NCBI GenBank assembly: GCA_963169855.1
Contig: CAUJCN010000002.1
Span: 69,508 to 133,507, forward strand
Direction of reading: 5' to 3'
DNA: 64,000 nucleotides
Source: Patescibacteria group bacterium
Lineage (GTDB): Bacteria; Patescibacteriota; Dojkabacteria; J137
Shown one piece after another: positions 15,995 through 51,549 of this stretch. Both the position numbers and the translations under genes were made by a program. The notes beneath the pieces were generated by a model that was not told the DNA's origin, searched no databases, and saw only the letters and a list, made by a program, of their open reading frames with translations. Positions within the stretch are counted from its first letter, which is position 1. Every line of letters starts with the position of its first letter.

Positions 15995-16306
15995 GTGACC
16001 GTGATGAACTACTTACTCGTTGCGCCTACGTTATCAGCGCCAACTCTAGATACTGTAAAAGAACTGTCGTCGAAAGTTTTTACCAAAATTGAAAAACTAC
16101 TAAAAAAGTTTGGACAAGAAGGATGTGTCGTAAAGATTTCGGTTCTCAGAGATGGCAATTCTTATAAAGTAAATGTAGAACTTTTAAACCATAACCTGTA
16201 CAAACCATTTATTGCTTTTAGGGACTCAGATTTAAGAAGAGCAATTGGAATGTCTGCTGTTAAATTAAAAGCTCAACTCCTCAACTTACATAATAAAAAT
16301 AAATAA
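15995..16306 (+). CDS. hpf: ribosome hibernation factor (HPF/RaiA, S30AE family)
   Basis: ~100 aa; VKISVLRDGNSYKVNVEL and AFRDSDLRRAIGMSAVKLKAQLLNLHNK resemble the YfiA/HPF beta-alpha-beta-beta-beta-alpha pattern; true start may be ATG at 16004. Confidence 0.6.
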   Translation: MTVMNYLLVAPTLSAPTLDTVKELSSKVFTKIEKLLKKFGQEGCVVKISVLRDGNSYKVNVELLNHNLYKPFIAFRDSDLRRAIGMSAVKLKAQLLNLHNKNK

Positions 16307-16318
16307 TAAGTTATCTTC

Positions 16319-16352
16319 ACTCCCCCTAGCAATGCTTTGGGGGAGTTTTTTG
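16319..16352 (+). terminator. rho-independent terminator after hpf
   Basis: actccccc-N12-gggggagt followed by TTTTTT. Confidence 0.65.
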
Positions 16353-16403
16353 TTGATATTTTAAAGCATTTCAATTAAACTCGAAGTAGTTATTATTATC
16401 ATA

Positions 16404-16979
16404 ATGAAAAAAGTTAGAAACGCTGTCTTAGCCTCTTTTGGCTTACTTACACTTTTTGCTCCTGCTGTTAGTGCTCAATATTACTATTACTACGAAAGTT
16501 CACCAGAAGCTGGTGCATTTTTAGCTGGATTCGGTGTTTTATACCTTATCTTGTGCTTATGTGGAGGGTTAGTTGCTTTAGTTGCATATATCTTTACATC
16601 TATGCAGTATGCAAAGATTTTCGAGAAAAATGGAATGGCTGATAAGAAAGTATTGGCATTTATTCCTATCGCACAGAACTATTACTTAGCTAAAGCTGTG
16701 GGTGAAGATGAATACGCTTGGGTTCAAGTTGCAGTTCCATTGGGAATTTTAATCTCTATCCCACTTACATTCTTTATAATTGGATTCTGCATTCTTTTCC
16801 CTTTGGCAATTGTTGGTATTGTGTTCGGAGTTAAGCTTTGGTTAAAAGCTGCTGAAAGAATGGGACAAGACCAAATTTGGGGAATCGCTGCTTCTTTAGC
16901 AAGTTTCATTCCACTTGTTGGATATTTCATTCAACTTTATGCAATTTATGTAATTGCGGAAGGAACTGTAAAGAAATAG
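16404..16979 (+). CDS. secreted/membrane protein of unknown function (signal peptide plus 3-4 TM helices)
   Basis: 191 aa; signal peptide with AVSA|QYYYYY site; conceivably a pilin or VirB2/VirB3-like secretion component given the neighbouring VirB4-like gene, but no supporting motif. Confidence 0.45.
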   Translation: MKKVRNAVLASFGLLTLFAPAVSAQYYYYYESSPEAGAFLAGFGVLYLILCLCGGLVALVAYIFTSMQYAKIFEKNGMADKKVLAFIPIAQNYYLAKAVGEDEYAWVQVAVPLGILISIPLTFFIIGFCILFPLAIVGIVFGVKLWLKAAERMGQDQIWGIAASLASFIPLVGYFIQLYAIYVIAEGTVKK

Positions 16980-17003
16980 AAATCTAAAAGATTTAAATAC
17001 GAG

Positions 17004-17040
17004 AAGACTAGAAGATTAAAATTCTAGTCTTTTCAATTTT
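17004..17040 (+). terminator. rho-independent terminator
   Basis: 10-bp stem aagactagaa / ttctagtctt with 8-nt loop, followed by ttcaatttt. Confidence 0.5.
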
Positions 17041-17121
17041 CAAACTATTCTTAAGCAACCTTTCAACTACTTTTGCACTACCCATATTCACCTTGATTTC
17101 TGATTATGATAGACTGATTGC

Positions 17122-17793
17122 ATGGGAATTTTTGACTCAAGAAAAATTAGTACTCAAGACCATTTAGACATTGCTGATATTCGTGACGACTTAGTTGTTC
17201 TAAAGAACGGAAAAGTTGCAGTAGTTTTAGAAACATCTTCTTTAAACTTTGAACTGTTAGACCCAAAAGAACAGGATGGGAAAATAGGTTCATTTGCAGC
17301 ATTTTTAAATGCTATCAATTTTCCTATTCAAATTGTAATTAGAACTCAAAGAACTGACATTGCTAGGTATCAGAAATTGCTCGAAGAATATAAAGCAAAG
17401 ACAGCAACTCAGAAGGTTGTTCAACAAATTAATAACTACCAGGCTTTTGTGAACGAATTGACACAAACAACTCAAATTCTAGATAAAAGATTCTTTGCAA
17501 TAATTCCTACAATAAAGCTTCCTGTTATACAAACAAACATTATTAAGCAAATACTTGGAAGAGAAGAAATTCTAGAAAATATTCCTTCGATTGTCAGAAA
17601 AGCAAAAGAAGAGCTTTATCCTAAAAGAGATCATGTACTTAAACAGTTCGCAAATATGAACATCGCAGCAAAACAGTTAACTAACGATGAATTAATAAAA
17701 CTCTACTATTCTGTCTACGAACCTGATAAATTAGGTATTGAGGTACTTAACTTAAAGGCCGAAGATATCGGTAGTTCAATGGTAACTTCTTAA
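17122..17793 (+). CDS. virB4: VirB4/TrbE-family ATPase, N-terminal segment (ends at an in-frame TAA)
   Basis: 223 aa; DIADIRDDLVVLKNGKVAVVLETSSLNFELLDPKEQDGKIGSFAAFLNAINFPIQIVIRTQR resembles the VirB4/TrbE N-terminal region; same reading frame as the next ORF. Confidence 0.55.
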   Translation: MGIFDSRKISTQDHLDIADIRDDLVVLKNGKVAVVLETSSLNFELLDPKEQDGKIGSFAAFLNAINFPIQIVIRTQRTDIARYQKLLEEYKAKTATQKVVQQINNYQAFVNELTQTTQILDKRFFAIIPTIKLPVIQTNIIKQILGREEILENIPSIVRKAKEELYPKRDHVLKQFANMNIAAKQLTNDELIKLYYSVYEPDKLGIEVLNLKAEDIGSSMVTS

Positions 17794-17796
17794 ATT

Positions 17797-19638
17797 ATGG
17801 GATTATTTAGTTTATTATTTCCAAAATCAGATACAAAACCTGCAGTTAGCAAGGAAGAGGCTGCTATCCTGGATCAGGAAAGGAAGTCAGTGGAAAAATT
17901 TGCAAAAGGTTTGGTCGATGTAAAAGACATCATTGCACCATCAGCGATTGAGGTGAATTTCAACAATATGATTATCGGAAATAAATTTTTCAGATCATAC
18001 TTTGCAATTGGATTCCCTACTTTTGTTTCTCCAAGTTGGCTTGGACCACTAATCAATTTTGAATATCCTATCGATATTAGTACCTATTACTATCCAAACG
18101 ATACAGGTGATGTATTGAAACTTTTGAAAAGAAAAATTGCGGAACTTCAGGCAACAATTAATATCGAAATGGATGCTGGAAGACCAGCGGATCCAATTAT
18201 TCAAGAACAGTTGAAAAGTGCGATTTTGGTTCAAGAACAACTTGCTGCTGGGAATGAACAATTCTTTCAATATGCTTTATACATGACTGTTAGAGCTGAT
18301 ACGTTAGAAGAACTAGATAGAATTTCAAAGAACTTGGAATCTACTATGGCAACAATGGGCGTTGTTATTAAGGTAGCGACTCTTCAACAAGAAGAAGCTT
18401 TCCAAAGTACAATTCCTTACGGAATGGACAAGATTAACATGACTAGAAATCTTGATACCACAGCCATTGCTACAACATTCCCATTCGTAAGTTCGGAACT
18501 GACCATGGAAAAGGGAGTTTTGTATGGAATTAATTTACACAATAGTTCGTTAGTTATTTTTGATAGATTCTCTTTACCAAATGCAAATTCAGTAATTCTC
18601 GCTACTTCTGGAGCTGGTAAATCTTACGCAGTTAAACTAGAAGCAGTTAGATCTTTGATGCTTGGAACAGACATTATTATTATCGACCCCGAAAAAGAAT
18701 TTGATAGATTGTGTGCCGCTGTTGGAGGAGAATACATTTCTTTCTCTCAAGATGGTGCTCAAAAGTTGAATCCATTCGAATTATCAGGTGTTTACAGTCC
18801 AGATGAAGATGAGCTTAGATTCAAAATTCTTACACTTTCTGGTTTAATTAGAATTATGCTTGGAGGAAGCGTAACTGCAGAGGAAGGAGCGATCTTAGAT
18901 AGAGCTTTGATTTTGACCTATAAAGAAAAAGGAATTACTCCAGATCCATCGACGCATACAAAAGAAGCTCCTTTATTAGAAGACTTGTATAAAATTTTGA
19001 ACGCCATGTCCGAAGAGGAAGCACATTCGATGGCACGAAGATTGGAAAAATATATTCGAGGTTCTGCTGCTGGAGTTTTTGATCAAAAATCATCAGTGGA
19101 TATTAAAAATAATTTTACAGTTTTCAGTATTAGAGACTTGGCAGACGATTTAAGACCAATGGCCATGTACGTTATGTTGGATTTTATCTGGACAAAGATT
19201 AAACGAGATAAGAAAAAAAGGCTTCTACTTATCGACGAGGCTTGGATTATGATGCAGTATCCTGATGCAGCTAGGTTTGTATATTCAATTGCGAAAAGAG
19301 CTAGAAAATATGGGCTAGGTTTAACAACAATTACACAAGATGTAGACGACTTCCTAAGTTCAGATTTTGGAAAAGCAATCGTAAGTAACTCATCTATGCA
19401 GTTACTTTTAAAACAGTCTCCTTCAGCAATCGAAAAGATTCAGAAAGTTTTCTACCTGACAGAGGGAGAAAAAGAATTCTTAATGAGTGCTGGAATTGGA
19501 CAAGGATTATTCTTTGCAGGTGCAAACCATGTTGCTATGCAGGTTGTAGCAAGTGAAGATGAACATACTTTAATTACAACCAACCCTCAAGAATTACAAA
19601 GAATCCAAGAAGAAGAGAACGGTGGAATTACCTCTTGA
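17797..19638 (+). CDS. virB4: VirB4/TrbE/TraC-family secretion ATPase (main body)
   Basis: 613 aa; Walker A ILATSGAGKSY; IDPEKEF...GGEYISFS...LNPFEL; Walker B LLLIDEAWIMM (the VirB4-specific DEAW); TTITQDVDDF. Confidence 0.8.
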   Translation: MGLFSLLFPKSDTKPAVSKEEAAILDQERKSVEKFAKGLVDVKDIIAPSAIEVNFNNMIIGNKFFRSYFAIGFPTFVSPSWLGPLINFEYPIDISTYYYPNDTGDVLKLLKRKIAELQATINIEMDAGRPADPIIQEQLKSAILVQEQLAAGNEQFFQYALYMTVRADTLEELDRISKNLESTMATMGVVIKVATLQQEEAFQSTIPYGMDKINMTRNLDTTAIATTFPFVSSELTMEKGVLYGINLHNSSLVIFDRFSLPNANSVILATSGAGKSYAVKLEAVRSLMLGTDIIIIDPEKEFDRLCAAVGGEYISFSQDGAQKLNPFELSGVYSPDEDELRFKILTLSGLIRIMLGGSVTAEEGAILDRALILTYKEKGITPDPSTHTKEAPLLEDLYKILNAMSEEEAHSMARRLEKYIRGSAAGVFDQKSSVDIKNNFTVFSIRDLADDLRPMAMYVMLDFIWTKIKRDKKKRLLLIDEAWIMMQYPDAARFVYSIAKRARKYGLGLTTITQDVDDFLSSDFGKAIVSNSSMQLLLKQSPSAIEKIQKVFYLTEGEKEFLMSAGIGQGLFFAGANHVAMQVVASEDEHTLITTNPQELQRIQEEENGGITS

Positions 19639-41092: not shown

Positions 41093-41734
41093 CTAGAATG
41101 ATTTAGAAAAAGTTGATAGTTTGATTCCAAAAGCATTTACAAAGAAAGCTAAACCAATCATTTCCAAGAATTCCTCAATCCCTACTTCGATCAAATACAA
41201 ATCAGATACTCCATAAAGTCGACCCCCAATTAGTTCCAAAACTGCCACTAGCACAAAACAAATTAATCCAAGGAACATGAATTTTCTTACGTCGCTCTTT
41301 TCTTTTAGTGTTCCATAAAGCAGGAAAGCAAAAAAAATTGCTACGAATACCCCCAGAGAGATTACCCAGGAAAAATTAGCCGCGTCAGAAAGAAACGAAA
41401 CATTACTTTTTATAAAATCATTTAGAGCATCTCTAAAACTAAAAGCTTCTTCAAGTCCGAATAGAATAAATACTCCACTGTACAAAAAATACAAAATTGA
41501 TTCTGATTTTTTTGTTGATACCAAAGCAATCTTACCTGCATATACAAACGCCGAGAAAGCGATGCATGTAGTTATAATTGATCCAATCGAAAAGCTCTCA
41601 TCTAGGTAAAAAATGCTGTAACTATATTGCAGAATTCTTACCGAGTGTAAAAGGAAATGCAAAATTAAAACTATGAAAGATACAAATGTTATTAACTTGA
41701 ATTCTGGAGTTAGTGTTTTTGCTAAATTTCTCAT
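41093..41734 (-). CDS. hypothetical polytopic membrane protein
   Basis: 213 aa, ~6 TM helices. Confidence 0.45.
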   Translation of the reverse strand: MRNLAKTLTPEFKLITFVSFIVLILHFLLHSVRILQYSYSIFYLDESFSIGSIITTCIAFSAFVYAGKIALVSTKKSESILYFLYSGVFILFGLEEAFSFRDALNDFIKSNVSFLSDAANFSWVISLGVFVAIFFAFLLYGTLKEKSDVRKFMFLGLICFVLVAVLELIGGRLYGVSDLYLIEVGIEEFLEMIGLAFFVNAFGIKLSTFSKSF

Positions 41735-41989: not shown

Positions 41990-42415
41990 TTAAGTCTCGT
42001 TTTTAACAGGCTCAAATAGCTGCTTAGCTTCCTCGATAGTTTCTGATGTCTTTGTATTATGGCGAGTTAATTTGAGTTGTCCTGCACCTTTTCTATCTGT
42101 GAAATACGATCCTGAAAGTTCTCGAACTGGGTCGCCAATAATATCAAGTGTCACAGCTCCGTCATGTGGACGGTTATCGCCTCTTTTCCCATGAGGTGCT
42201 TCACTTTTGTAAAGATAGTAAAGTTGTAGTTTGTTTTGGTAACTTTTGGTTATCTTTGCTGTTATTGAGTTTGATTCTGAAGGTTTTTCGAAAAAGGAGC
42301 GAATATGAATTGAAGTAAGTGTTTGGTGAATACAAACATAGATATCTACATTGCCTTTCTTTCCATCTTTATCACTCTCATAATAAAGGTTACCTTTCCA
42401 AGTTCCATGCATTAC
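41990..42415 (-). CDS. hypothetical protein in a GC-richer segment (start placed at internal Met)
   Basis: the N-terminal 60 codons of tracked ORF 41990..42601 look like antisense read-through; MHGTWKGNLYYESDKDGKKG... onward looks protein-like. Confidence 0.35.
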   Translation of the reverse strand, partial: VMHGTWKGNLYYESDKDGKKGNVDIYVCIHQTLTSIHIRSFFEKPSESNSITAKITKSYQNKLQLYYLYKSEAPHGKRGDNRPHDGAVTLDIIGDPVRELSGSYFTDRKGAGQLKLTRHNTKTSETIEEAKQLFEPVKNET

Positions 42416-43915: not shown

Positions 43916-44005
43916 TGGCGGAGGAGACAGGATTTGAACCTGCGTCAGCCAGATGGCTGAACAGTCTTTCCAGGACTGCGCACTAGACCACTATGCGACT
44001 CCTCC
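43916..44005 (-). tRNA. tRNA-Ser (anticodon GGA), CCA encoded
   Basis: Hand fold: acceptor GGAGGAG/CTCCTCC, anticodon stem CAGTC/GACTG with loop CTGGAAA, long variable arm (CAGCC/GGCTG), T-arm GCAGG-TTCAAAT-CCTGT, 3' GCCA. Confidence 0.85.
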
Positions 44006-44245
44006 AGTTTGTAGTCTTCTTTTTAAATAGGCTCGACCATACCCAGTTTTTAACTGTTTCTCTCTTAGAATTGCCGACTTCCGATTTAAACATGCTTCGA
44101 AATAAATTAAAGTCAAAGGTCTCCTGTATTTGGTAGATGTGACTTTACCTAATTCATGTTCTTGCAATCTCTTGCTCAGATCCTCTGTAAAACCAATGTA
44201 CAGCTTTCCGTCTTGTGATTGTAAAACGTAGGTATAATATAGCAT
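43991..44245 (-). CDS. small GIY-YIG nuclease family protein (YhbQ-like)
   Basis: MLYYTYVLQSQDGKLYIGFTEDLSKRLQEHELGK; the tracked ORF extends upstream into the partial tRNA copy, so start placed at Met28; 3' end overlaps the tRNA-Ser 5' end by 15 nt. Confidence 0.65.
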   Translation of the reverse strand: MLYYTYVLQSQDGKLYIGFTEDLSKRLQEHELGKVTSTKYRRPLTLIYFEACLNRKSAILREKQLKTGYGRAYLKRRLQTGGVA

Positions 44246-44268
44246 TACTTTTTTAATATTCAAATAGA

Positions 44269-44324
44269 CACCACTACCCGCCTGCAACGCTTTGCGTAGC
44301 AATGCGGGCAGGTGCGACTCCTCC
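44269..44324 (-). repeat. partial duplicate of the tRNA-Ser 5' end with an inserted GC-rich hairpin
   Basis: minus strand reads GGAGGAGTCGCA + 36-nt GC-rich insert + TAGTGGTG; tRNA-Ser begins GGAGGAGTCGCATAGTGGTC. Confidence 0.5.
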
Positions 44325-44421
44325 ATTGGATTGACTGTAGATTATACCAAATCACATTAGTTTGCAGTATTCTTAAAAATACAACTATAATGAAATAAAC
44401 TTTACTTTTTACTATTATTTT

Positions 44422-45182: not shown

Positions 45183-45950
45183 ATGGTAGCTAAAACTGAC
45201 TTTAAAACTAAGTATGTTAAAACTCACTTTGGGCATCTAGCTTATCACCAGATTGAAGCCAAAAACAACGAATTTTGCATTTTTGTTCACGGGCACATGG
45301 ACAGTGGGCTAGATAGATTTAGCTATAGGTTAATAGAAGATTTTGAAGGAGCTGCATCGTTAATTTTATTGGACAGCCGAGGTCACGGTAGCTCAACCAG
45401 ATTAGAAAACTACCCTAGTTTGAAAGAGCGAGGTGAAGATCTAAAAATCCTAGTTCAACATTTAATTGAAAACCATAACCCCACTACAGTAACCCTTATC
45501 TCCTACTCTATTGCCTCTGGGATTATTCTGAATGTTCTATCTGAAGTTGAAACAATTCATTCTTCGACAAAATTTAAAGCTGTATTAGTCGCGCCTCTTT
45601 TAAAACTCTCGAAACACAAAGAATGGTTCAAGGAAAATATAAAAACATTAAAAAACACCTCTGCAAACTTTATCCAGAAGGTTTATAGAAGCAAGGGAAT
45701 TTTCAATATAAACAGGGATTACTTTAAGGACTTGTCAGTAAATTTTTACAGAAAGAATGCTTCTAAGATCAAATCAAAACTAAGCATTGTATTTGGAGAG
45801 CAAGATAATAGAACATCAGTTGCCGATGTATTGAGGTTTAAGAACGAGATTTTACCTAAAGCGAAGGTTTATTCTTATAAATCACTTGGGCATGTTTTTA
45901 ACGAAAAGGAATATGCCTTAATCAGTAAAAAGATTTCCCAAATAGCCTAA
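45183..45950 (+). CDS. alpha/beta hydrolase
   Basis: IFVHGHMDS...; nucleophile elbow ISYSIASG. Confidence 0.6.
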   Translation: MVAKTDFKTKYVKTHFGHLAYHQIEAKNNEFCIFVHGHMDSGLDRFSYRLIEDFEGAASLILLDSRGHGSSTRLENYPSLKERGEDLKILVQHLIENHNPTTVTLISYSIASGIILNVLSEVETIHSSTKFKAVLVAPLLKLSKHKEWFKENIKTLKNTSANFIQKVYRSKGIFNINRDYFKDLSVNFYRKNASKIKSKLSIVFGEQDNRTSVADVLRFKNEILPKAKVYSYKSLGHVFNEKEYALISKKISQIA

Positions 45951-47125
45951 ACAATTCTTGCTTCTTCGAATTTATTAACTGCAGACTGGATTACCGAAAG
46001 CATCTTCGCACAAACTAAATCTGTCTTAACTTGAGCTCTAATGTTGTTAATCTTTACTTTAGAAACTTTTCTTCCGCATAATTTCTTAATTTTAGTGATG
46101 ACTTCATCGTGATTTTTAAAGTCAGCCACCATGTTTTCTAACCCTGCATCAATCAGTAATTGAGCACAGCCAACCGTATGATTAACAAGAACAGGAACGC
46201 CAACGCAAATCGCTTCAACTGGAACATATCCAAATGTCTCGAAATATGATGGACAAACAATCAAACCTTGACTCTTATAGAAATCAAGAAGTCCTTCTGC
46301 AGACATCGGCGGAACTAATTCCATAGTTTCAGGAAATTTTGTATTAGCATTGCTGATATCAGAAACAAAAGTTGCTTTGTGCTTCCATCCATCCCCAAGC
46401 AAATCTCTGTGTATATTGAAAAACGCATCAAAATTTTTCACTCTTGCATATCTTCCTACCGCAGCAATACTTTTTTCTACAACTGTATCACCGACCTCTG
46501 CTTCAGTAAAAATATCATTTACTGGATTAGGTATAACGTAGTTATCAGGAAGTTTTCTTCTAGAAAATATTTTCTTAACTGTGTCTCTACAGATTTCTGA
46601 GGGGTAAATAATCGCTTCTGCTCCTAGCGTAATATCTTTTTCCATGATTTTGAAAACCTCCTTGAACTCTTTGTCATAATGCTCGACTTCTTTTGAAAGT
46701 ACACCTGCATACCAAAGTACATACGGGATATCTAGTTTCTTTGCAGCTTCAGAGATAATCCATGGAATATAGTAAGTACCATTCAAAAGAATTACATCAG
46801 GACGATTTTTATTCAAAAGATCTTCAACTGTCTGAATAACTTTTTTATATTTTTTTCTGATCTTATCAATGTCTTTAGTTTTTTTAATAACATCCATCAC
46901 ACCCAAGTCATGAATATTAATTACGTAGTGATCAAATCTATCTTCTTCGTATTTATCATAAATACGTGTATGTTTAGAAACTAATCGACCATTTAATTCA
47001 ATTCCTAGAAAATCGTGACCCTCTTCATAAAGATAGTCTATTAATGCCATATTGGCAGAAGTAATACCTCCTAACGGCTCTCTTGTAAGATTCAATCCTA
47101 GCTTCATATGAGTCAAATTAACCAT
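45947..47125 (-). CDS. glycosyltransferase family 4
   Basis: C-terminal ETFGYVPVEAICVGVPVL (E-x7-E motif). Confidence 0.75.
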   Translation of the reverse strand: MVNLTHMKLGLNLTREPLGGITSANMALIDYLYEEGHDFLGIELNGRLVSKHTRIYDKYEEDRFDHYVINIHDLGVMDVIKKTKDIDKIRKKYKKVIQTVEDLLNKNRPDVILLNGTYYIPWIISEAAKKLDIPYVLWYAGVLSKEVEHYDKEFKEVFKIMEKDITLGAEAIIYPSEICRDTVKKIFSRRKLPDNYVIPNPVNDIFTEAEVGDTVVEKSIAAVGRYARVKNFDAFFNIHRDLLGDGWKHKATFVSDISNANTKFPETMELVPPMSAEGLLDFYKSQGLIVCPSYFETFGYVPVEAICVGVPVLVNHTVGCAQLLIDAGLENMVADFKNHDEVITKIKKLCGRKVSKVKINNIRAQVKTDLVCAKMLSVIQSAVNKFEEARIV

Positions 47126-47273
47126 TACATTATATCAAAAATATATATCCAGATCTATACCCTTAACATACTGCAAACTTTATCTACTAACTACACTTTA
47201 ACTTTAGTTTGAAAGAAAATAAAGAAAAGCCTGGCAATTTTCTTACCAGGCTTTCAAATAATTTATATTCTTT

Positions 47274-49157
47274 TTATCTACTCAATTCTGCCCATGCATA
47301 AAACGCTGCTCCATTAAGATCGATACTTTCTGGATCAACATTCTTATTTAACTTAGAAACAATTTCCTTATTCATTTGAGCTGGAGTATATCGAACATCC
47401 TTTCCAAGTTTTTTACCCTCTCTTAAAATTGCAGCGGTATTTTCGCCTCCACCATACGCAGAAATTACATCACTAACCTCCAAGAAAATCTTTGTAGTTT
47501 CTGCTAATCTATCTGTTCCAGGAACTTTTCCTCCCCAGTATGGGTCATTTGCTATATAAATTCTATCTACAAATCTAGAAAATCTACCACTGTATTGCAA
47601 TGCAAGAGTAGATGCGACTCCAATCGTCATGAATCCCATTTCCTTTGCAATTTCGTATGCAGCTCCAATACCTTCTTCAGTTGCACCAATATTAATTATT
47701 GTTGTCTTAGGATCTAAAGTTTTTAATTCCTTTTTAATTTGCTTCATTACAGCATCTTTATCCTGATATTCAAGTTGAGAGTATCCAAATAAGGTAAATA
47801 CATTCTTCTCTAAAGCCTTGATTTGTTTAACTATACTTTCTGCAGATGTTGGTTCTGTCGCGAATTGCTCCATAACATCTGGATCGTCTGACATAAGACT
47901 CTTGTATACGAATTTTTCTTCCGAACCTTCTTTCGAAGTAATCAACTTCATGATTTCTTCGTCGCTAGGATAATCAGTGTAGTTCAATATTTTGAATACC
48001 TGTTTTGCTGCTTGAAGTAACCATTCTGGAGTTCTGTACTTAATTGCTACCAGTCCATCACCAGTATTTTCTGGATCATCGTAGAATCCATAATTAAGTT
48101 TGTTATAAACGTTTGAAAGCAAAGATAATGCTCTGTCATGGAAGAACCGAACTGTGATCGCTCCTCTTGTTCTAGTATTTGAAATTCCACTTTGAATATT
48201 TCCTGTTGGAGTTCGCAGATCCTCGATATCTTGCGGAGCATCGCTTTCTGGATAAATCATATGCTCAAATGGTTGAGGCATGTTTGGTCTTAAAATTTCT
48301 TCAATGACTGATTCTGGTTCGGCAGTTAATGCTGATTCGTGGAAAATTTCAAACATAATAACTCTTACCAATCTTCTTACGCCATTCTCATCTTCAGGAG
48401 TACCTTCTGGAGATTTATCGATGTTTGGAAAAATAACTTCTTTTAGGAAATTATCCATATGTCTGTATAAATTTATTTTCTGAACATCAAACGTATAACC
48501 CAAAGCTCTTTCCCTCATCATTGTGTAACCTTGCATTCTTCGAACATGATTAATATCGTGATACCAGAAATCTAATGGTGATTGTTGGTGTCTATCAACT
48601 CTAATTGTTCTAGAAACAACACCTATAAATCCTATAGGTACAGATCTTACTCGGATTAGATCATCCATTTTAAGTTCTGTAATTGTTGGGTAAACAATCA
48701 CATTTGGATCTGAAATTAATGCATGTCTATGATATGCGTATCTGTCAAAGTGATAAAGAGGAACTGCTTTGTTTCCTGGTTCCAGTCTATTCAACTTATC
48801 TAGAAGTCTTAGACCAGCTTCGATTGCGTCGATTGTTGGTCTGTATGGGAAAGGTCCGTTGAATGGTCTTGGATATGGATACTTTTCTTCATCCTCAAAC
48901 TGAAAGTTTAGATTAATATGAGCGAACAAAGTTTTAACTTCCTTTAGTTCATACGCTAACTGTTGATGATCTTCCAAAATCTTTGAGAATTCAGGGGTAT
49001 CTAGTTCATCCAAAATATAATTTACAGTAGGTTCGAATTCGGGGAAGCAAGCATTGAAGCCGTCTTTCTTGATTCTACAATAGAAATCAACGTAACAATC
49101 AATTGGATTTTCTATGATCTTTTGAACGAATATTTTATCTTTTTCTATGTTCGTCAT
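47274..49157 (-). CDS. large protein of unknown function; C-terminal Rossmann domain resembling LOG/DprA (SLOG-like)
   Basis: 627 aa; last ~150 aa TIINIGATEEGIGAAYEIAKEMGFMTIGVAS...ISAYGGGENTAAIL resemble the GxGxxG-type and PGGxGT-like elements of TIGR00730/DprA-type folds; N-terminal 450 aa not recognised. Confidence 0.45.
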   Translation of the reverse strand: MTNIEKDKIFVQKIIENPIDCYVDFYCRIKKDGFNACFPEFEPTVNYILDELDTPEFSKILEDHQQLAYELKEVKTLFAHINLNFQFEDEEKYPYPRPFNGPFPYRPTIDAIEAGLRLLDKLNRLEPGNKAVPLYHFDRYAYHRHALISDPNVIVYPTITELKMDDLIRVRSVPIGFIGVVSRTIRVDRHQQSPLDFWYHDINHVRRMQGYTMMRERALGYTFDVQKINLYRHMDNFLKEVIFPNIDKSPEGTPEDENGVRRLVRVIMFEIFHESALTAEPESVIEEILRPNMPQPFEHMIYPESDAPQDIEDLRTPTGNIQSGISNTRTRGAITVRFFHDRALSLLSNVYNKLNYGFYDDPENTGDGLVAIKYRTPEWLLQAAKQVFKILNYTDYPSDEEIMKLITSKEGSEEKFVYKSLMSDDPDVMEQFATEPTSAESIVKQIKALEKNVFTLFGYSQLEYQDKDAVMKQIKKELKTLDPKTTIINIGATEEGIGAAYEIAKEMGFMTIGVASTLALQYSGRFSRFVDRIYIANDPYWGGKVPGTDRLAETTKIFLEVSDVISAYGGGENTAAILREGKKLGKDVRYTPAQMNKEIVSKLNKNVDPESIDLNGAAFYAWAELSR

Positions 49158-49184
49158 AGTTAAATATAATAAGTTAAATATTAA

Positions 49185-50285
49185 TTAAGCTTCGCCTCTT
49201 TTTGATAAAGCTTTATTCTGTATATCTAATACAGTTTGGAATGCTCCTGGATTTGCGTCCATACCTACAATTCTGATCATTATCTTTAAAGCATCTTGGA
49301 CTGCATACCTTCTAGTTATATCACCTACGTCTGTTGCCAACAAGCTATTTAAGTAGTAACAAATATTTACAATCAACATAAAAGTGTCTACTGCTGCAAC
49401 TTCTGGATTTTTTTCGTAGTTAGCTCTAAACGCCTTAATTGCTGTAACTACATCATTAGCTGTTAAGTTATCGAAATCACTTAGAAGTGTTTTTAAAGTG
49501 TGATTAAGATCTGTGAATATATGTGGAGGAGTTGTTCTACCAGCTACGGATTGAGCTGAGTAATCTTGTTTTATATTTTCCAATTTATAAGCAGTCTTTC
49601 TCCAATTCTCGTGAGCTTTTACCATTTCATTTACAATTCCAAACTCTTCTGCAATACCCAAGTGCAGGGTTAATCCGTCAATTGTTGTTTCTCGATTCAA
49701 ATTAAGAACTGCATAGTATATTTCCTGAACAAGCTGCCTATCTGTTTTGCTCAGTTTACCTTCTACAAGATCGCTAAAATCAATATTATTTTGAACTAGA
49801 AGGTTTTTAACGAAATCTATCCAATGTGTATTTCCAGTTAATATTCTTTCTTGAGCTGAAATGATCCAATCTCTAAATTCTTGAGAAGTTAATTTATCTA
49901 GATAATCAAAATATGAAGCATTCGCTTTGAAAGCTAAGGAAAATTCAGCCTTGAATGTTGCTAAATCTTGTCTATATTGACTCTCATATTGATAAGGATT
50001 TTGAGCAATACGATGCATTAGTGGGAACAACGAACTTGGAATCATTACTGGGTGACCATCTTTTCCAAGTTCTTCAACTCTATCTCTTGTTGGCCAAGGA
50101 GTTCTTGTGTCGAATTGATGCTCTAACCAACTTTCGTGAGTATCAATAATTACTTGTTGAGATATCAAACTTAGTGCTTCAGCATCTGACATAGATTCCG
50201 ACTGCACAGCTTTGTAACGCATAAACTCAGGAGTAGCTCCCGAATCTGGTTCAGACATTGGATTTAACGATGCTGTACTTCTCAT
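49185..50285 (-). CDS. hypothetical helical protein, first gene of the operon
   Basis: 366 aa, no motif recognised. Confidence 0.4.
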   Translation of the reverse strand: MRSTASLNPMSEPDSGATPEFMRYKAVQSESMSDAEALSLISQQVIIDTHESWLEHQFDTRTPWPTRDRVEELGKDGHPVMIPSSLFPLMHRIAQNPYQYESQYRQDLATFKAEFSLAFKANASYFDYLDKLTSQEFRDWIISAQERILTGNTHWIDFVKNLLVQNNIDFSDLVEGKLSKTDRQLVQEIYYAVLNLNRETTIDGLTLHLGIAEEFGIVNEMVKAHENWRKTAYKLENIKQDYSAQSVAGRTTPPHIFTDLNHTLKTLLSDFDNLTANDVVTAIKAFRANYEKNPEVAAVDTFMLIVNICYYLNSLLATDVGDITRRYAVQDALKIMIRIVGMDANPGAFQTVLDIQNKALSKRGEA

Positions 50286-50421
50286 ATAAAATAAATTAAT
50301 TTAATAAATAACTATAGCGATTGTAATTTCCTTTACCTATATAGTTTTGACAAATAATGTCTAAATTGATGCCAATTCTGACAACTACCAACTAAATGTT
50401 AAAAACTGCTAAAATTTAGCT

Positions 50422-51549
50422 ATGAATAAGTTGAAAGAAGATGTAATCGGACTCTTGAACATGGGACTCAACCCTACAGTGGTGGGTTTCCAAGATGATG
50501 GGCTTTTTTACCTGTTCGACTCCCTTTTGAAAGGTAAACTGAGTTCTAATGGATACGATCCTACATTTACATTCACTCATGTAACTTTAGATTCAGGGTC
50601 AAAAATCACTAGTGAAAATTTAGAATTAGAAATAAATCGTGGATTAGAGTCTGATCCGTTTCCTGGGAACACTATTTACGAAACAATAGCTAATCAAATT
50701 GAAGTTGTTTGTGTAATGGATAATATTGCTGATTTGCAAAGTATCGAGACAATTATAGAAGTTTGCGATAATTTGATAAAGAAGTACCGAGAGAAACTTA
50801 GATTTGTTTATATAGTAGAAGACCCTAGCCTGTTGAGTAAGCTAAAAAACAAAATTTTCGCTCAATCTAGCTTCTTCGATGCAGTTGTATATCAAAAAAT
50901 TGGAGTAAATTGGGATGAAGAAAGTTTATACGAATTTTTAAAACCTCAGTTTAAGAAAGAATTGACTGCTGATCAGCTAAATCTATTAAAAGAGATTTCT
51001 GGAAATCATTTTGGAACTTACAAACGCTTATACAAAGATTGGGTTTTGAACCTAGAAACAACACAACGATACGTAGAGTTGTTGATTGAGAATTTTGATC
51101 CAGCAACGCTAAATACCTTCAGGAAAGTAATTAGAAATGAGCAATTGAATTCTGATGAGGAGAAAATTGCTTCTGATTATTCTAAAGTAAATTTACTTAA
51201 AGGAAATAAGATTACTATTCCAATTTTAGAATCTGCAATTAAAAATTCAAAAGTTCCTAACAAAATTTTTATAGATACGACTGATAAACTTTCTGGATTA
51301 GATTTAAATCTACTTTCCAAAACTGAGAGAGACATTACGGAAGCGTTAATGAAAACTAATGAAATTATTTCGAAAGAAGAAATGGGAAATGTAATTTGGA
51401 AAGATCGCGCAGGAGAAATGTTCTCTGTTTGGGCTGTAGATCAAAGAATATCGCGACTAAGAAGGAAGTTTATGGATCTTGGTTTAGAATATGATATTCA
51501 AACAGTTTATGGGAAAGGGTTTAAATTGGTAAAATTTGGAAATAACTAA
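50422..51549 (+). CDS. transcriptional regulator with C-terminal OmpR/PhoB-type winged-helix domain and non-canonical N-terminal region
   Basis: LSKTERDITEALMKTNEIISKEEMGNVIW...VDQRISRLRRKF...IQTVYGKGFKLV matches trans_reg_C; N-terminal 280 aa lack a recognisable receiver. Confidence 0.55.
   Translation: MNKLKEDVIGLLNMGLNPTVVGFQDDGLFYLFDSLLKGKLSSNGYDPTFTFTHVTLDSGSKITSENLELEINRGLESDPFPGNTIYETIANQIEVVCVMDNIADLQSIETIIEVCDNLIKKYREKLRFVYIVEDPSLLSKLKNKIFAQSSFFDAVVYQKIGVNWDEESLYEFLKPQFKKELTADQLNLLKEISGNHFGTYKRLYKDWVLNLETTQRYVELLIENFDPATLNTFRKVIRNEQLNSDEEKIASDYSKVNLLKGNKITIPILESAIKNSKVPNKIFIDTTDKLSGLDLNLLSKTERDITEALMKTNEIISKEEMGNVIWKDRAGEMFSVWAVDQRISRLRRKFMDLGLEYDIQTVYGKGFKLVKFGNN

Follow-up and report, generated by a model that had tools for sequence, protein, structure and literature searches.

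What do two large neighbouring proteins, neither of which belongs to a recognisable family, do in the window (the whole 64-kb stretch of DNA that was analysed), and do they form one system with the glycosyltransferase gene that lies close by on the same strand? The first-pass annotation had read the three genes as a minus-strand operon faced by a divergent regulator, and the reading frames themselves are all present, encoding proteins of 366 (49185-50285, minus strand), 627 (47274-49157, minus strand) and 392 amino acids (45947-47125, minus strand; GT4-type, with a GT-B fold), as is the regulator, a 375-aa Trans_reg_C protein encoded at 50422-51549 on the plus strand. All three are genuine genes, but they are not one system. 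A spacer of 27 bp separates the 366-aa from the 627-aa gene, and the stop codon of the latter lies 148 bp from the start of the GT4-type gene, not 116 bp as first given. Within this gap we find a strong intrinsic terminator (47255-47225, minus strand; 13-bp stem with 5 GC pairs and a T-run) and, downstream of it, an extended -10 element (TGATATAAT) immediately upstream of the GT4 ATG. The operon can thus contain no more than two cistrons, the 366-aa and 627-aa genes, which may be functionally coupled, and the GT4 gene is a separate transcription unit. Rfam models detected two tRNAs and no other RNA element in the window.

The GT4 protein matches Glycos_transf_1 (4.7e-11) and Glyco_transf_4 (1.7e-7) in Pfam and stays far under every NCBIfam equivalog cut-off. 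A match to the GT4-conflict family (PF20706), weaker than that to Glycos_transf_1, is not full-length but spans residues 284-335 only (52 aa; profile positions 280-335 of 385), in the shared GT-B nucleotide-sugar motif; PADLOC detected no conflict-system neighbours, and the terminator separates the gene from those upstream. We surveyed the neighbours of about 37 non-redundant loci encoding homologs of the 627-aa protein by unbiased clustering of 270 ORFs, and a GT4 gene of the window type was found beside none of them, the closest relative (L003) holding GT2/GH57/GT5/GT2/RimK in its place. The GT4 gene is an independent neighbour, and the trio that had been proposed as a unit does not stand.

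The 627-aa protein ends in a domain (residues about 448-605; 47343-47816, minus strand) for which a LOG/DprA/SLOG-like Rossmann fold had been proposed, and the AF2 model of the whole protein (pLDDT 92.1, pTM 0.88) together with Foldseek bears this out. The Gly-rich strings quoted earlier are all present (IGATEEGIGAAYEIA at residues 490-504, TIGVAS at 511-516, AYGGGENT at 567-574), and the Gly-rich loops are GYS, GATEEGIG, TIGVAS, WGG and GGGENT, with near-invariant positions at G458, G491, T493, G496, G513, G542, G543, G569 and G570. The best PDB match is the Moco carrier protein 2iz5 (E 1e-4, TMt 0.61, 20-23% identity), and others are MHR1/2 of TRPM2/4/5/8, DprA 3uqz, TM1055 1rcu, YgdH/PpnN 9us2 and LOG 1ydh/5its/5zbl; Foldseek probability was 1.00 for 2iz5, 1rcu, 9us2, 1ydh, 5its, 5zbl, 3uqz and many TRPM chains, in every case through the C-terminal domain. 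With a three-layer alpha/beta fold around a parallel five-stranded sheet, Gly-rich loops and a GGxxT-type loop after strand 5, the modelled domain is a Rossmannoid of the SLOG superfamily. The catalytic LOG motif PGGxGTxxE (PMC4979012), searched for as GG.GT..E, is present in 0 of 98 family members; GGGxNT replaces it in 87 of these, and the position of the catalytic Glu is taken by Ile, Thr or Val. Neither the Pfam nor the NCBIfam LOG (Lysine_decarbox) models matched the window protein or any of 65 members, DNA_processg_A of DprA/Smf was likewise unmatched in both collections, and the structural resemblance to DprA has a low TM score (TMt 0.35). The model thus points to a domain that is non-catalytic in the LOG sense and is predicted to bind nucleotides.

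The N-terminal domain (residues 1-430; 47868-49157, minus strand), absent from the earlier description, is the probable catalytic module of the protein. Modelled alone it reaches a pLDDT of 93.9 and consists of a helical subdomain A (12-125) and a conserved core (132-425). We scored invariance in 65 homologs and then in 13 diverse sequences including giant-virus relatives, and two motifs were invariant in both sets: HDINHVRR (H200 D201 N203 H204 R206 R207; 48537-48560, minus strand) and FEIFHESALTAE (E270 H273 E274; FExxHE; 48318-48353, minus strand). The residues kept in bacteria and giant viruses alike are H136, D188, H200, D201, N203, H204, R206, R207, H273 and E274. Together with Arg/Tyr, these His, Asp, Asn and Glu residues resemble an active site that binds metal and phosphate, and the HD[I]xH pattern may resemble the class I PDE signature; "hydrolase" is a label suggested by this residue pattern. 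Searches of Pfam, NCBIfam, PADLOC and the sequences of the PDB found no match to the N-domain, no Pfam family was hit consistently across the 65 aligned members, and Foldseek of the model against the PDB returned no fold match (best E 1.2), leaving the fold undescribed and HD/PDE, metallophosphoesterase, kinase, ART, Fic and histidine-phosphatase folds unsupported. Profile searches of the PDB yielded spurious matches only; the one to Csx28 (E 1.3e-3) was set aside, as it lies in a tail that is not conserved. The N-domain also occurs without SLOG (P0093/94/96/97/98 and L048-L055), and a profile search seeded with such members recovered no further relatives. Because its invariants span bacteria and giant viruses and it exists in this free-standing form, conservation suggests an autonomous catalytic module to which a regulatory or binding module is optionally joined.

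The 627-aa protein has 98 full-length homolog clusters (E<=1e-85, 36-85% identity), none containing a Pfam domain. With few exceptions the family is limited to epibiotic Saccharibacteria and predatory Bdellovibrionota; it comprises about 100 clusters of two corresponding kinds, and the identity of about 53% across phyla suggests horizontal transfer. About 26 Bdellovibrionota-type members carry an N-terminal hydrophobic segment, which is found neither in the window protein nor in about 63 Saccharibacteria-type members. These signal-peptide-like N-termini, called with a Kyte-Doolittle scan heuristic and by inspection, are coherent within the clade and extend to the operon partners, and the hydrophobicity points to probable export of the Bdellovibrionota-type proteins. 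A tblastn search against phages gave no match for the 627-aa protein, and against plasmids it yielded no full-length copy, only a SLOG-only homolog (40% identity) on a Rhizobium plasmid.

Across the 37 loci and 270 ORFs, only two recurrent partner sets accompany the 627 homologs. The first is NrtR (NUDIX plus NrtR_WHD), which represses NAD genes in response to ADPR (Rodionov et al. 2008, PMC2330246). Its gene is directly divergent from that of the homolog in three loci (L034, L038 and L056) and lies nearby in L035 and L040, together with NAPRTase/pncB, an ADP-ribosylglycohydrolase and a nucleoside-deoxyribosyltransferase-like gene. This link is seen in two or three lineages only (the L056/L034/L035/L038 clade, L040 and partly L012), and nrtR, pncB and the ADP-ribosylglycohydrolase (ARH) gene are absent from the 64-kb window. 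In L035, L038 and L056 the shared intergenic region contains a 21-mer with the GT-N7-AC core of the NrtR box, a 21-bp palindrome; these candidate boxes come from related genomes and are imperfectly palindromic (6-7 of 10). No RNA elements were found by Rfam in the nrtR loci. In L056, a kinase-like neighbour of 625 aa was checked as a possible paralog of the 627-aa protein and is not one, nor does it have detectable homology with the APH-like partner of the Bdellovibrionota. That partner belongs to the second set, found in Pseudobdellovibrionaceae, where genes for an APH-like kinase and a HAD IIIB acid phosphatase share an operon with the homologs. A DSP-PTPase fusion, including PTP-NADK and PTP-SAK matches, and adjacency to SurE also occur; kinase, phosphatase, DSP-PTPase and SurE all represent phospho-nucleotide chemistry.

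The 366-aa gene adjoins the 627-aa gene only in the closest relatives of the window among these loci, a narrow clade, and their adjacency could be accidental. Conservation ties the 366-aa gene to the divergent regulator and not to the 627-aa gene, the divergent pairing being kept in L021, L022/L023, L029 and L003. The regulator carries a C-terminal OmpR/PhoB-type wHTH (Trans_reg_C, 2.5e-8, residues 298-369) and lacks a receiver domain, its N-terminal 290 aa have no Pfam match, and a Nudix gene akin to the Nudix domain of NrtR lies beside it in L021, L023 and L029. The intergenic region that it shares with the 366-aa gene contains a block kept in five loci (CAATTTAGACATTATTTGTCAAAA; 50345-50368, minus strand), putatively face-to-face -35-like hexamers or an operator.

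Like its neighbour, the 366-aa protein matched nothing in Pfam, NCBIfam, PADLOC or PDB sequences, so that the statement that both large proteins lack a curated family holds, and tblastn against phages gave nothing meaningful. Its family is small and fast-evolving (about 20 representative relatives), and the protein is laid out as an N-terminal RyR (R12)-like module followed by a helical C-terminal region with the invariants N152, W155, H225, W228, R229, D343 and N345. The RyR-like segment (residues about 36-115; 49941-50180, minus strand) was picked out with a family profile, whose matches in the PDB include the RyR1 R12 domain 5c30 (E 3.1e-5, a modest 26.6 bits), 11 of its 14 matches being RyR-domain chains; the Pfam RyR model (PF02026) leaves the window protein below threshold, and the member P0116 scores 20.4 bits against a cut-off of 27.4 bits. 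The segment contains THESW (H50, W53) and KDGHP (H78), which by analogy may correspond to the ligand-contacting H75/W78 and the phosphate-contacting H100 of RyDEP (PMC13232231). Most members of the family keep the Trp and GHP, and about half of them have Gln in place of the first His. Phage proteins with an R12 domain either bind 2'/3'cADPR or cleave it, and they feed the resynthesis of NAD (2026 preprint, PMC13232231), and by this analogy the 366-aa protein looks like an ADP-ribose-binding protein of RyR type. An internal repeat was not supported, hhalign of the RyR-like segment against the HENWRK region giving a probability of 1.4%.

The theme of nucleotide signalling or processing raised by the first-pass annotation fits this evidence, to which the enzyme-like N-domain, the RyR-like module, the link to NrtR, pncB and ADP-ribosylglycohydrolase and the probably exported forms in predators were added here; of its other claims the real genes, the SLOG domain and the uncurated families stood, and the gap size and the trio as one unit did not. 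We tentatively favour, with somewhat less than even confidence, the reading that the 366-aa and 627-aa proteins are a pair processing NAD/ADPR nucleotides in a host-dependent bacterium, probably one of the Saccharibacteria. The 627-aa protein would be a stand-alone enzyme of two modules that hydrolyses or remodels an NAD-derived nucleotide, which could be NAD(P)+, ADPR, a cADPR isomer or NMN/NaMN, with the SLOG domain as its substrate-capture or allosteric site, and the RyR/R12-like module of the 366-aa protein would handle ADP-ribose-based nucleotides. The pathway would serve NAD turnover and salvage in bacteria living off other cells, the family acting in the cytoplasm of Saccharibacteria and presumably outside it in Bdellovibrionota. 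More doubtful is the broader proposal that the N-domain represents a new fold of NAD+/ADPR-nucleotide enzymes, cytoplasmic and NrtR-controlled in epibiotic CPR, exported with kinase and phosphatase partners in Bdellovibrionota and present in giant viruses, and that in the window it works with a cellular RyR/R12-type ADPR-binding protein.

Several of the same observations would suit an effector directed at host or prey, which we nevertheless consider unlikely. The N-domain would then be toxin-like (e.g., a new NADase or nucleotide-degrading enzyme) and would be activated by the SLOG domain when this meets nucleotides of the host, and nrtR, pncB and ARH would shield the producer's own NAD pool. 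A family nearly limited to epibionts and predators, the signal-peptide-like N-termini and kinase/phosphatase partners of its Bdellovibrionota-type members, the cross-phylum identity suggestive of horizontal transfer, homologs in giant viruses of protists, and one fusion that matches a DSP-PTPase model of polymorphic-toxin type (Tc-R-P) are all consistent with this. However, the Saccharibacteria-type proteins, that of the window included, lack a signal peptide and any recognisable signal for secretion, and stand among metabolic and regulatory neighbours, no immunity-gene pattern was found, and the high and uniform conservation is unlike that of diversifying toxins.

Still less probable is a defence system resembling ThsA of Thoeris, in which the SLOG domain would sense a cADPR-type alarm, the N-terminal effector would abort phage infection and the RyR-like protein would buffer or reset the signal. 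The order of effector and SLOG indeed parallels the SIR2-SLOG arrangement of ThsA, RyR-domain proteins act on Thoeris signals, the SLOG-only homolog of the Rhizobium plasmid is located 4.4 kb from a CAP12/Pycsar-type TIR protein amid IS elements, and the window has a Cap15_CD_rec ORF at a distance of about 5 kb. Yet the defence context that had been offered as an option finds no counterpart among the PADLOC models, which matched none of the four proteins, and a TIR or other signal-generating gene adjoins the 627 homolog in 0 of about 37 loci. ThsA structures were outside the top 50 structural matches, exported versions would be unable to sense cytoplasmic signals, the full protein turned up in neither phages nor plasmids, and the family is strongly conserved rather than patchy at strain level as typical defence islands are. 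That the two large proteins are accessory to the GT4 enzyme in modifying a surface polymer of the cell envelope is very improbable, since the closeness of three genes on one strand and the GT2, GH57, GT5 and GT2 genes in the same slot of L003 are set against a terminator and a separate promoter, the lack of the window-type GT4 beside any other 627 homolog, the different families in L003, which indicate a variable slot rather than a conserved partnership, and the lack of a glycan-related domain in either large protein.

Other bacteria supply the cofactors and nucleotides on which Saccharibacteria and Bdellovibrionota depend, and the ways in which these groups acquire or manipulate NAD are poorly understood. 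The 627 family offers a concrete and testable candidate for a step that is missing from NAD/ADPR turnover or from host exploitation, because a strongly conserved orphan domain is combined with a SLOG sensor, with an ADPR-responsive regulator in some lineages and with probable export in predators. The broader proposal, if true, would reveal an unseen branch of the NAD/ADPR network in organisms living off other cells, and the preferred reading would carry the recently discovered binding of nucleotides by RyR/R12 domains over from phages to the genomes of cells. Should the link to NAD fail, the N-domain would still be a well-defined orphan fold with an apparent active site, common to bacteria and giant viruses.

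Among known systems, ThsA (SIR2-SLOG, type I Thoeris) resembles the 627-aa protein in that a module of known or presumed enzymatic function precedes a C-terminal SLOG domain, which in ThsA binds an ADPR-derived ligand, and NAD-centred chemistry is suspected in both. However, the N-domain, which has no PDB fold match, is not related to SIR2, a ThsB/TIR partner is lacking, many 627 members are predicted to be exported, and the SLOG domain is structurally nearer to the Moco-carrier, LOG and TRPM forms. With LOG/PpnN (YgdH) and the Chlamydomonas Moco carrier protein it has in common the Rossmannoid SLOG fold, in which Gly-rich loops follow strands 1, 2 and 5, but PGGxGTxxE is missing from all 98 members, Lysine_decarbox is unmatched, and the domain is fused to one of 430 aa. 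The MHR1/2 region of TRPM2 is similar in structure (many TRPM matches, E 1e-3 to 1e-2) and in being a non-catalytic, ligand-sensing SLOG joined to another module, although it belongs to a eukaryotic ion channel and has no sequence similarity to the SLOG domain described here. The phage RyDEP/R12 proteins (PMC13232231) resemble the 366-aa protein in its N-terminal segment, which matches RyR repeat profiles and has H/Q-x-x-W and G-H-P at what may be the positions of H75/W78/H100, whereas that match is weak (E 3e-5, family profile), an unrelated helical region of 250 aa follows, the gene is cellular and not phage-borne, and the catalytic His is unconserved in close homologs. As in the NrtR regulon (PMC2330246), some 627 homologs are divergent to nrtR beside pncB and ADP-ribosylglycohydrolase, with a candidate site of GT-N7-AC type in the shared promoter region, but the window has the Trans_reg_C wHTH regulator in place of nrtR, and in its relatives the regulator is followed by a separate Nudix gene. 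The N-domain's only structural relative found is the uncharacterised protein E3T4D9 of Cafeteria roenbergensis virus, which, although it has no SLOG domain, shares the whole N-domain fold (BFVD, E 2.9e-25, TMq 0.81, rmsd 3.0 over 436 columns, 27% identity), and GVMAG relatives keep the motifs HDINHIRRM and FEITHE.

The first-pass annotation had proposed a three-gene system of two unannotatable proteins and a GT4 glycosyltransferase, faced by a divergent regulator, and its ORFs were confirmed in position and size. On the minus strand, ORFs of 366 aa (49185-50285) and 627 aa (47274-49157) precede the gene of a 392-aa GT-B glycosyltransferase (45947-47125), while a 375-aa regulator with a C-terminal Trans_reg_C winged helix is encoded on the plus strand (50422-51549). 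Neither of the two large proteins has a match in Pfam, NCBIfam, PADLOC or the PDB sequences, and the GT4 assignment was borne out by Glycos_transf_1 (4.7e-11) and Glyco_transf_4 (1.7e-7); since the protein scores far under every NCBIfam equivalog cut-off, it is a generic GT4. The gap in front of its gene, previously put at 116 bp, measures 148 bp and harbours an intrinsic terminator (13-bp stem and T-run, 47255-47225 (-)), after which an extended -10 element, TGATATAAT, lies immediately 5' of the GT4 start. As this terminator is strong and the 366 and 627 genes are separated by 27 bp, the transcription unit comprises at most these two genes. The GC content is ~34% across the region, without a compositional break. 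About 5 kb from these genes, a 140-aa ORF (41990-42412 (-)) has a precomputed Pfam match to Cap15_CD_rec (PF18153), which in the CBASS effector Cap15 is the receptor domain for cyclic dinucleotides; an unassigned 213-aa ORF (41093-41734 (-)) adjoins it, and no cyclase was seen nearby. A tRNA-Ser(GGA) gene (43916-44005 (-)) shares 15 bp with the 3' end of a 111-aa GIY-YIG ORF (43991-44326 (-)), a longest-ORF call whose start or extent may therefore need correction.

Homologs of the 627 protein form 98 clusters, all full-length or nearly so (36-85% identity), in which precomputed Pfam domains are absent except for one N-terminal phosphatase fusion. When an AF2 model based on a 65-sequence alignment (pLDDT 92.1, pTM 0.88) was compared with the PDB by Foldseek, only the C-terminal ~160 residues matched, and every match was a member of the SLOG superfamily: the best was that to the Moco carrier protein of Chlamydomonas (E 1e-4, TMt 0.61), and others were MHR1/2 of TRPM2/4/5/8, DprA, TM1055, YgdH/PpnN and plant and bacterial LOG. 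The LOG/DprA/SLOG-like fold guessed earlier was thus right, and a predicted ligand-binding SLOG is the reading that suits the domain best. An identity as a LOG enzyme was rejected: the family-defining motif PGGxGTxxE (PMC4979012) occurs in 0 of the 98 members, GGGxNT standing in its place in 87 of them, and no LOG model matches the protein or any of 65 family members. The existence of a SLOG-only protein on a Rhizobium plasmid, 40% identical to the SLOG of the window, indicates that the domain is a mobile module. This 301-aa hypothetical protein of Rhizobium leguminosarum (plasmid CP050566.1, L028:5629-6534) has an unassigned 120-aa head and is encoded 4.4 kb from a CAP12/Pycsar-type TIR protein (L028:320-1231), and IS4 and IS6 transposases occupy the DNA between the two genes and on their flanks.

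Most of the 627 protein is taken up by its N-terminal 430 residues, which are also better conserved than the rest. Invariant are H136, D188, H200-D201-x-N203-H204-x-R206-R207 and E270-x-x-H273-E274, hallmarks of a putative metal- and phosphate-binding active site, as are R171, K353 and several Tyr; we infer that the domain is catalytic. Modelled on its own it reached a pLDDT of 93.9, and Foldseek, the one fold search made against the PDB, returned no match (best E 1.2, TM ~0.1). A single match was obtained in BFVD: E3T4D9, an uncharacterised protein from Cafeteria roenbergensis virus that has the same fold (E 2.9e-25, TMq 0.81). Distant relatives lacking the SLOG (23-34% identity) are found in metagenome contigs and two giant-virus MAGs (L054:5776-7500 and L055:5416-7377, 23-24% identity), and keep both motifs, in the latter as FFVHDINHIRRM and LFEITHED. 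Some bacterial members also lack the SLOG, and others have the first helical subdomain duplicated or an N-terminal DSP-PTPase added (Y_phosphatase2, PTP-NADK and PTP-SAK models). Given the SLOG-less forms, the well-modelled isolated domain and its conserved residues, we consider it an autonomous module. A Terrestrivirus "Ankyrin" protein matches it weakly. In a 1132-aa exported relative (L049:942-4340), the core motifs recur in degenerate form (…EHDLFHAF…, …FHLTHESG…) after the N-terminal domain, suggesting an internal duplication of the putative catalytic core.

Among 49 loci with a 627 homolog (~37 non-redundant), unbiased clustering of 270 neighbouring ORFs recovered two recurrent gene sets. 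In Pseudobdellovibrionaceae, a ~900-aa form with the first subdomain duplicated is followed by two overlapping genes, which encode an APH-like kinase (676 aa) and a HAD IIIB/DUF2608 acid phosphatase (328 aa) (L016:5884-11550, also L018, L020 and L045). A surE gene neighbours one further homolog: in a Pseudobdellovibrionaceae MAG (L015:5122-8986) the homolog has surE on one side and a LysM/M23 (NlpD-like) gene on the other, the place usually taken by pcm in the proteobacterial surE-pcm-nlpD cluster. The second set, on Saccharibacteria-type contigs, centres on an NrtR regulator (NUDIX and NrtR_WHD), whose gene is directly divergent from the 627 homolog at L034, L038 and L056 and nearby at L035 and L040. 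It is accompanied by NAPRTase/pncB and an ADP-ribosylglycohydrolase gene (the latter also at L012), and at L035 a nucleoside-deoxyribosyltransferase-like gene lies immediately upstream. NrtR is an ADPR-responsive repressor of NAD genes whose sites share a GT-N7-AC core (PMC2330246). The shared intergenic region contains a 21-mer with this core at L035, L038 and L056, and none was found upstream of pncB; since these loci come from related genomes and the palindromes are imperfect, these candidate NrtR sites at 627-homolog promoters are suggestive only. A conserved, near-perfect GC-rich hairpin, GGAGGAGGCTCnGCCTCCTCC (L035:1969-1989, L038:3379-3399, L056:4771-4791), precedes pncB at L035 and L038 and the ADP-ribosylglycohydrolase gene at L056; it had no match in Rfam and may act in termination or as a regulatory RNA. 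Also recurrent near the 627 homolog in several Saccharibacteria-type lineages are genes for a PP2C phosphatase, for a protein-kinase-like protein of 625 aa with the G-loop IGSGGEADIY…AYKIFK, and for two proteins without assignment (~360 and ~262 aa; L056:31-4728, L038:4-3343, L012:599-4988, L040:3476-4871). The high-GC contig L056 additionally encodes a large protein (16283-17860) in which the vault-protein domains Vault_3 and MVP_shoulder are found.

The 366 protein evolves much faster than the 627 protein (42% vs 85% identity in the same relative). A profile of 19 sequences of its family matched, through residues ~36-115, RyR repeat (R12) structures, among them RyR1 (5c30, E 3.1e-5), insect RyR, full RyRs and the bacterial "putative ryanodine receptors" 3nrt/4n05/6uag, and one family member gave a sub-threshold match to Pfam RyR. 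The segment retains H/Q-x-x-W and G-H-P motifs, and its assignment to RyR is probable, not proven. Phage proteins with an R12 domain (RyDEP) have been shown to bind 2'/3'cADPR or hydrolyse it, contacting the ligand through H75, W78 and H100, and to feed NAD resynthesis (May 2026 preprint, PMC13232231). The ~20 representatives of the 366 family are consistently divergent from the 375-aa regulator, a pairing that is accompanied by a conserved intergenic block and persists without a 627 homolog (L022/L023, L029); in relatives, a Nudix gene related to the Nudix domain of NrtR follows the regulator. Of the claimed association between 366 and 627 genes, there remain the window's own copies, the 85% relative (L003/L007) and L021, where the 366 gene and regulator are adjacent; it fails at all other loci. 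The independence of the 366/regulator pairing indicates that the 627 gene came to sit behind this module in the lineage of the window.

Six independent lines, namely the SLOG fold, the RyR-like partner, the nrtR/pncB/ADP-ribosylglycohydrolase neighbourhoods, the Nudix neighbour, the NADK-type phosphatase fusion and the HAD acid-phosphatase/SurE partners, point to NAD/ADP-ribose-type nucleotides. The most economical model, which we favour tentatively, is that the 627 protein processes NAD-derived nucleotides. The N-terminal domain would be catalytic and the SLOG a binding or allosteric domain, and bacteria that depend on other cells for their living would use the enzyme to turn over and salvage NAD; in the lineage of the window, it would be co-transcribed with an ADPR-type binding protein, the 366 protein, and the GT4 gene would be an unrelated neighbour.

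In a set that represents each GTDB species by a single genome, seven Saccharibacteria MAGs, six Bdellovibrionota MAGs and one "Gammaproteobacteria" MAG carried the family. The nearest relative of the window's 627 protein (85% identity) comes from a Saccharibacteria MAG, and the window's protein itself is also encoded on an 818-kb contig; with the low GC content, these observations suggest that the window may be of Saccharibacteria origin. About 26 proteins have a positively charged, hydrophobic, signal-peptide-like N-terminus, and ~63 of Saccharibacteria type (610-637 aa) lack any N-terminal extension, a split that is clade-coherent in a neighbour-joining tree. From N-terminal heuristics, export is inferred for the Bdellovibrionota-type members; their co-operonic partners likewise have signal-peptide-like N-termini, as do all three proteins of the kinase/phosphatase operon, which looks like an exported one. 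An effector directed at host or prey could be read from these forms, and the protein of the window is of the type without extension; we regard this explanation as unlikely. A ThsA-like, signal-gated defence effector would be compatible with a ligand-binding SLOG, the PADLOC search is negative and phage records contained no copy of the 627 protein, and we hold such a role to be distinctly improbable. A glycan system of 366, 627 and GT4, as their adjacency in the window might suggest, is highly implausible: across the 49 loci a GT4 of this type adjoins no other 627 homolog, and at L003 GT2, GH57, GT5, GT2 and RimK stand in its place, with the same alpha/beta-hydrolase as in the window beyond them, so that the slot downstream of the 627 gene is a variable one. 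What probability remains goes to something else.

The N-terminal domain, its distribution, the exported forms and the cellular RyR-like partner appear to be new, no description of them having been found in the searched libraries or literature, whereas the architecture of an effector joined to a SLOG and the NAD/ADPR theme are of kinds already known.
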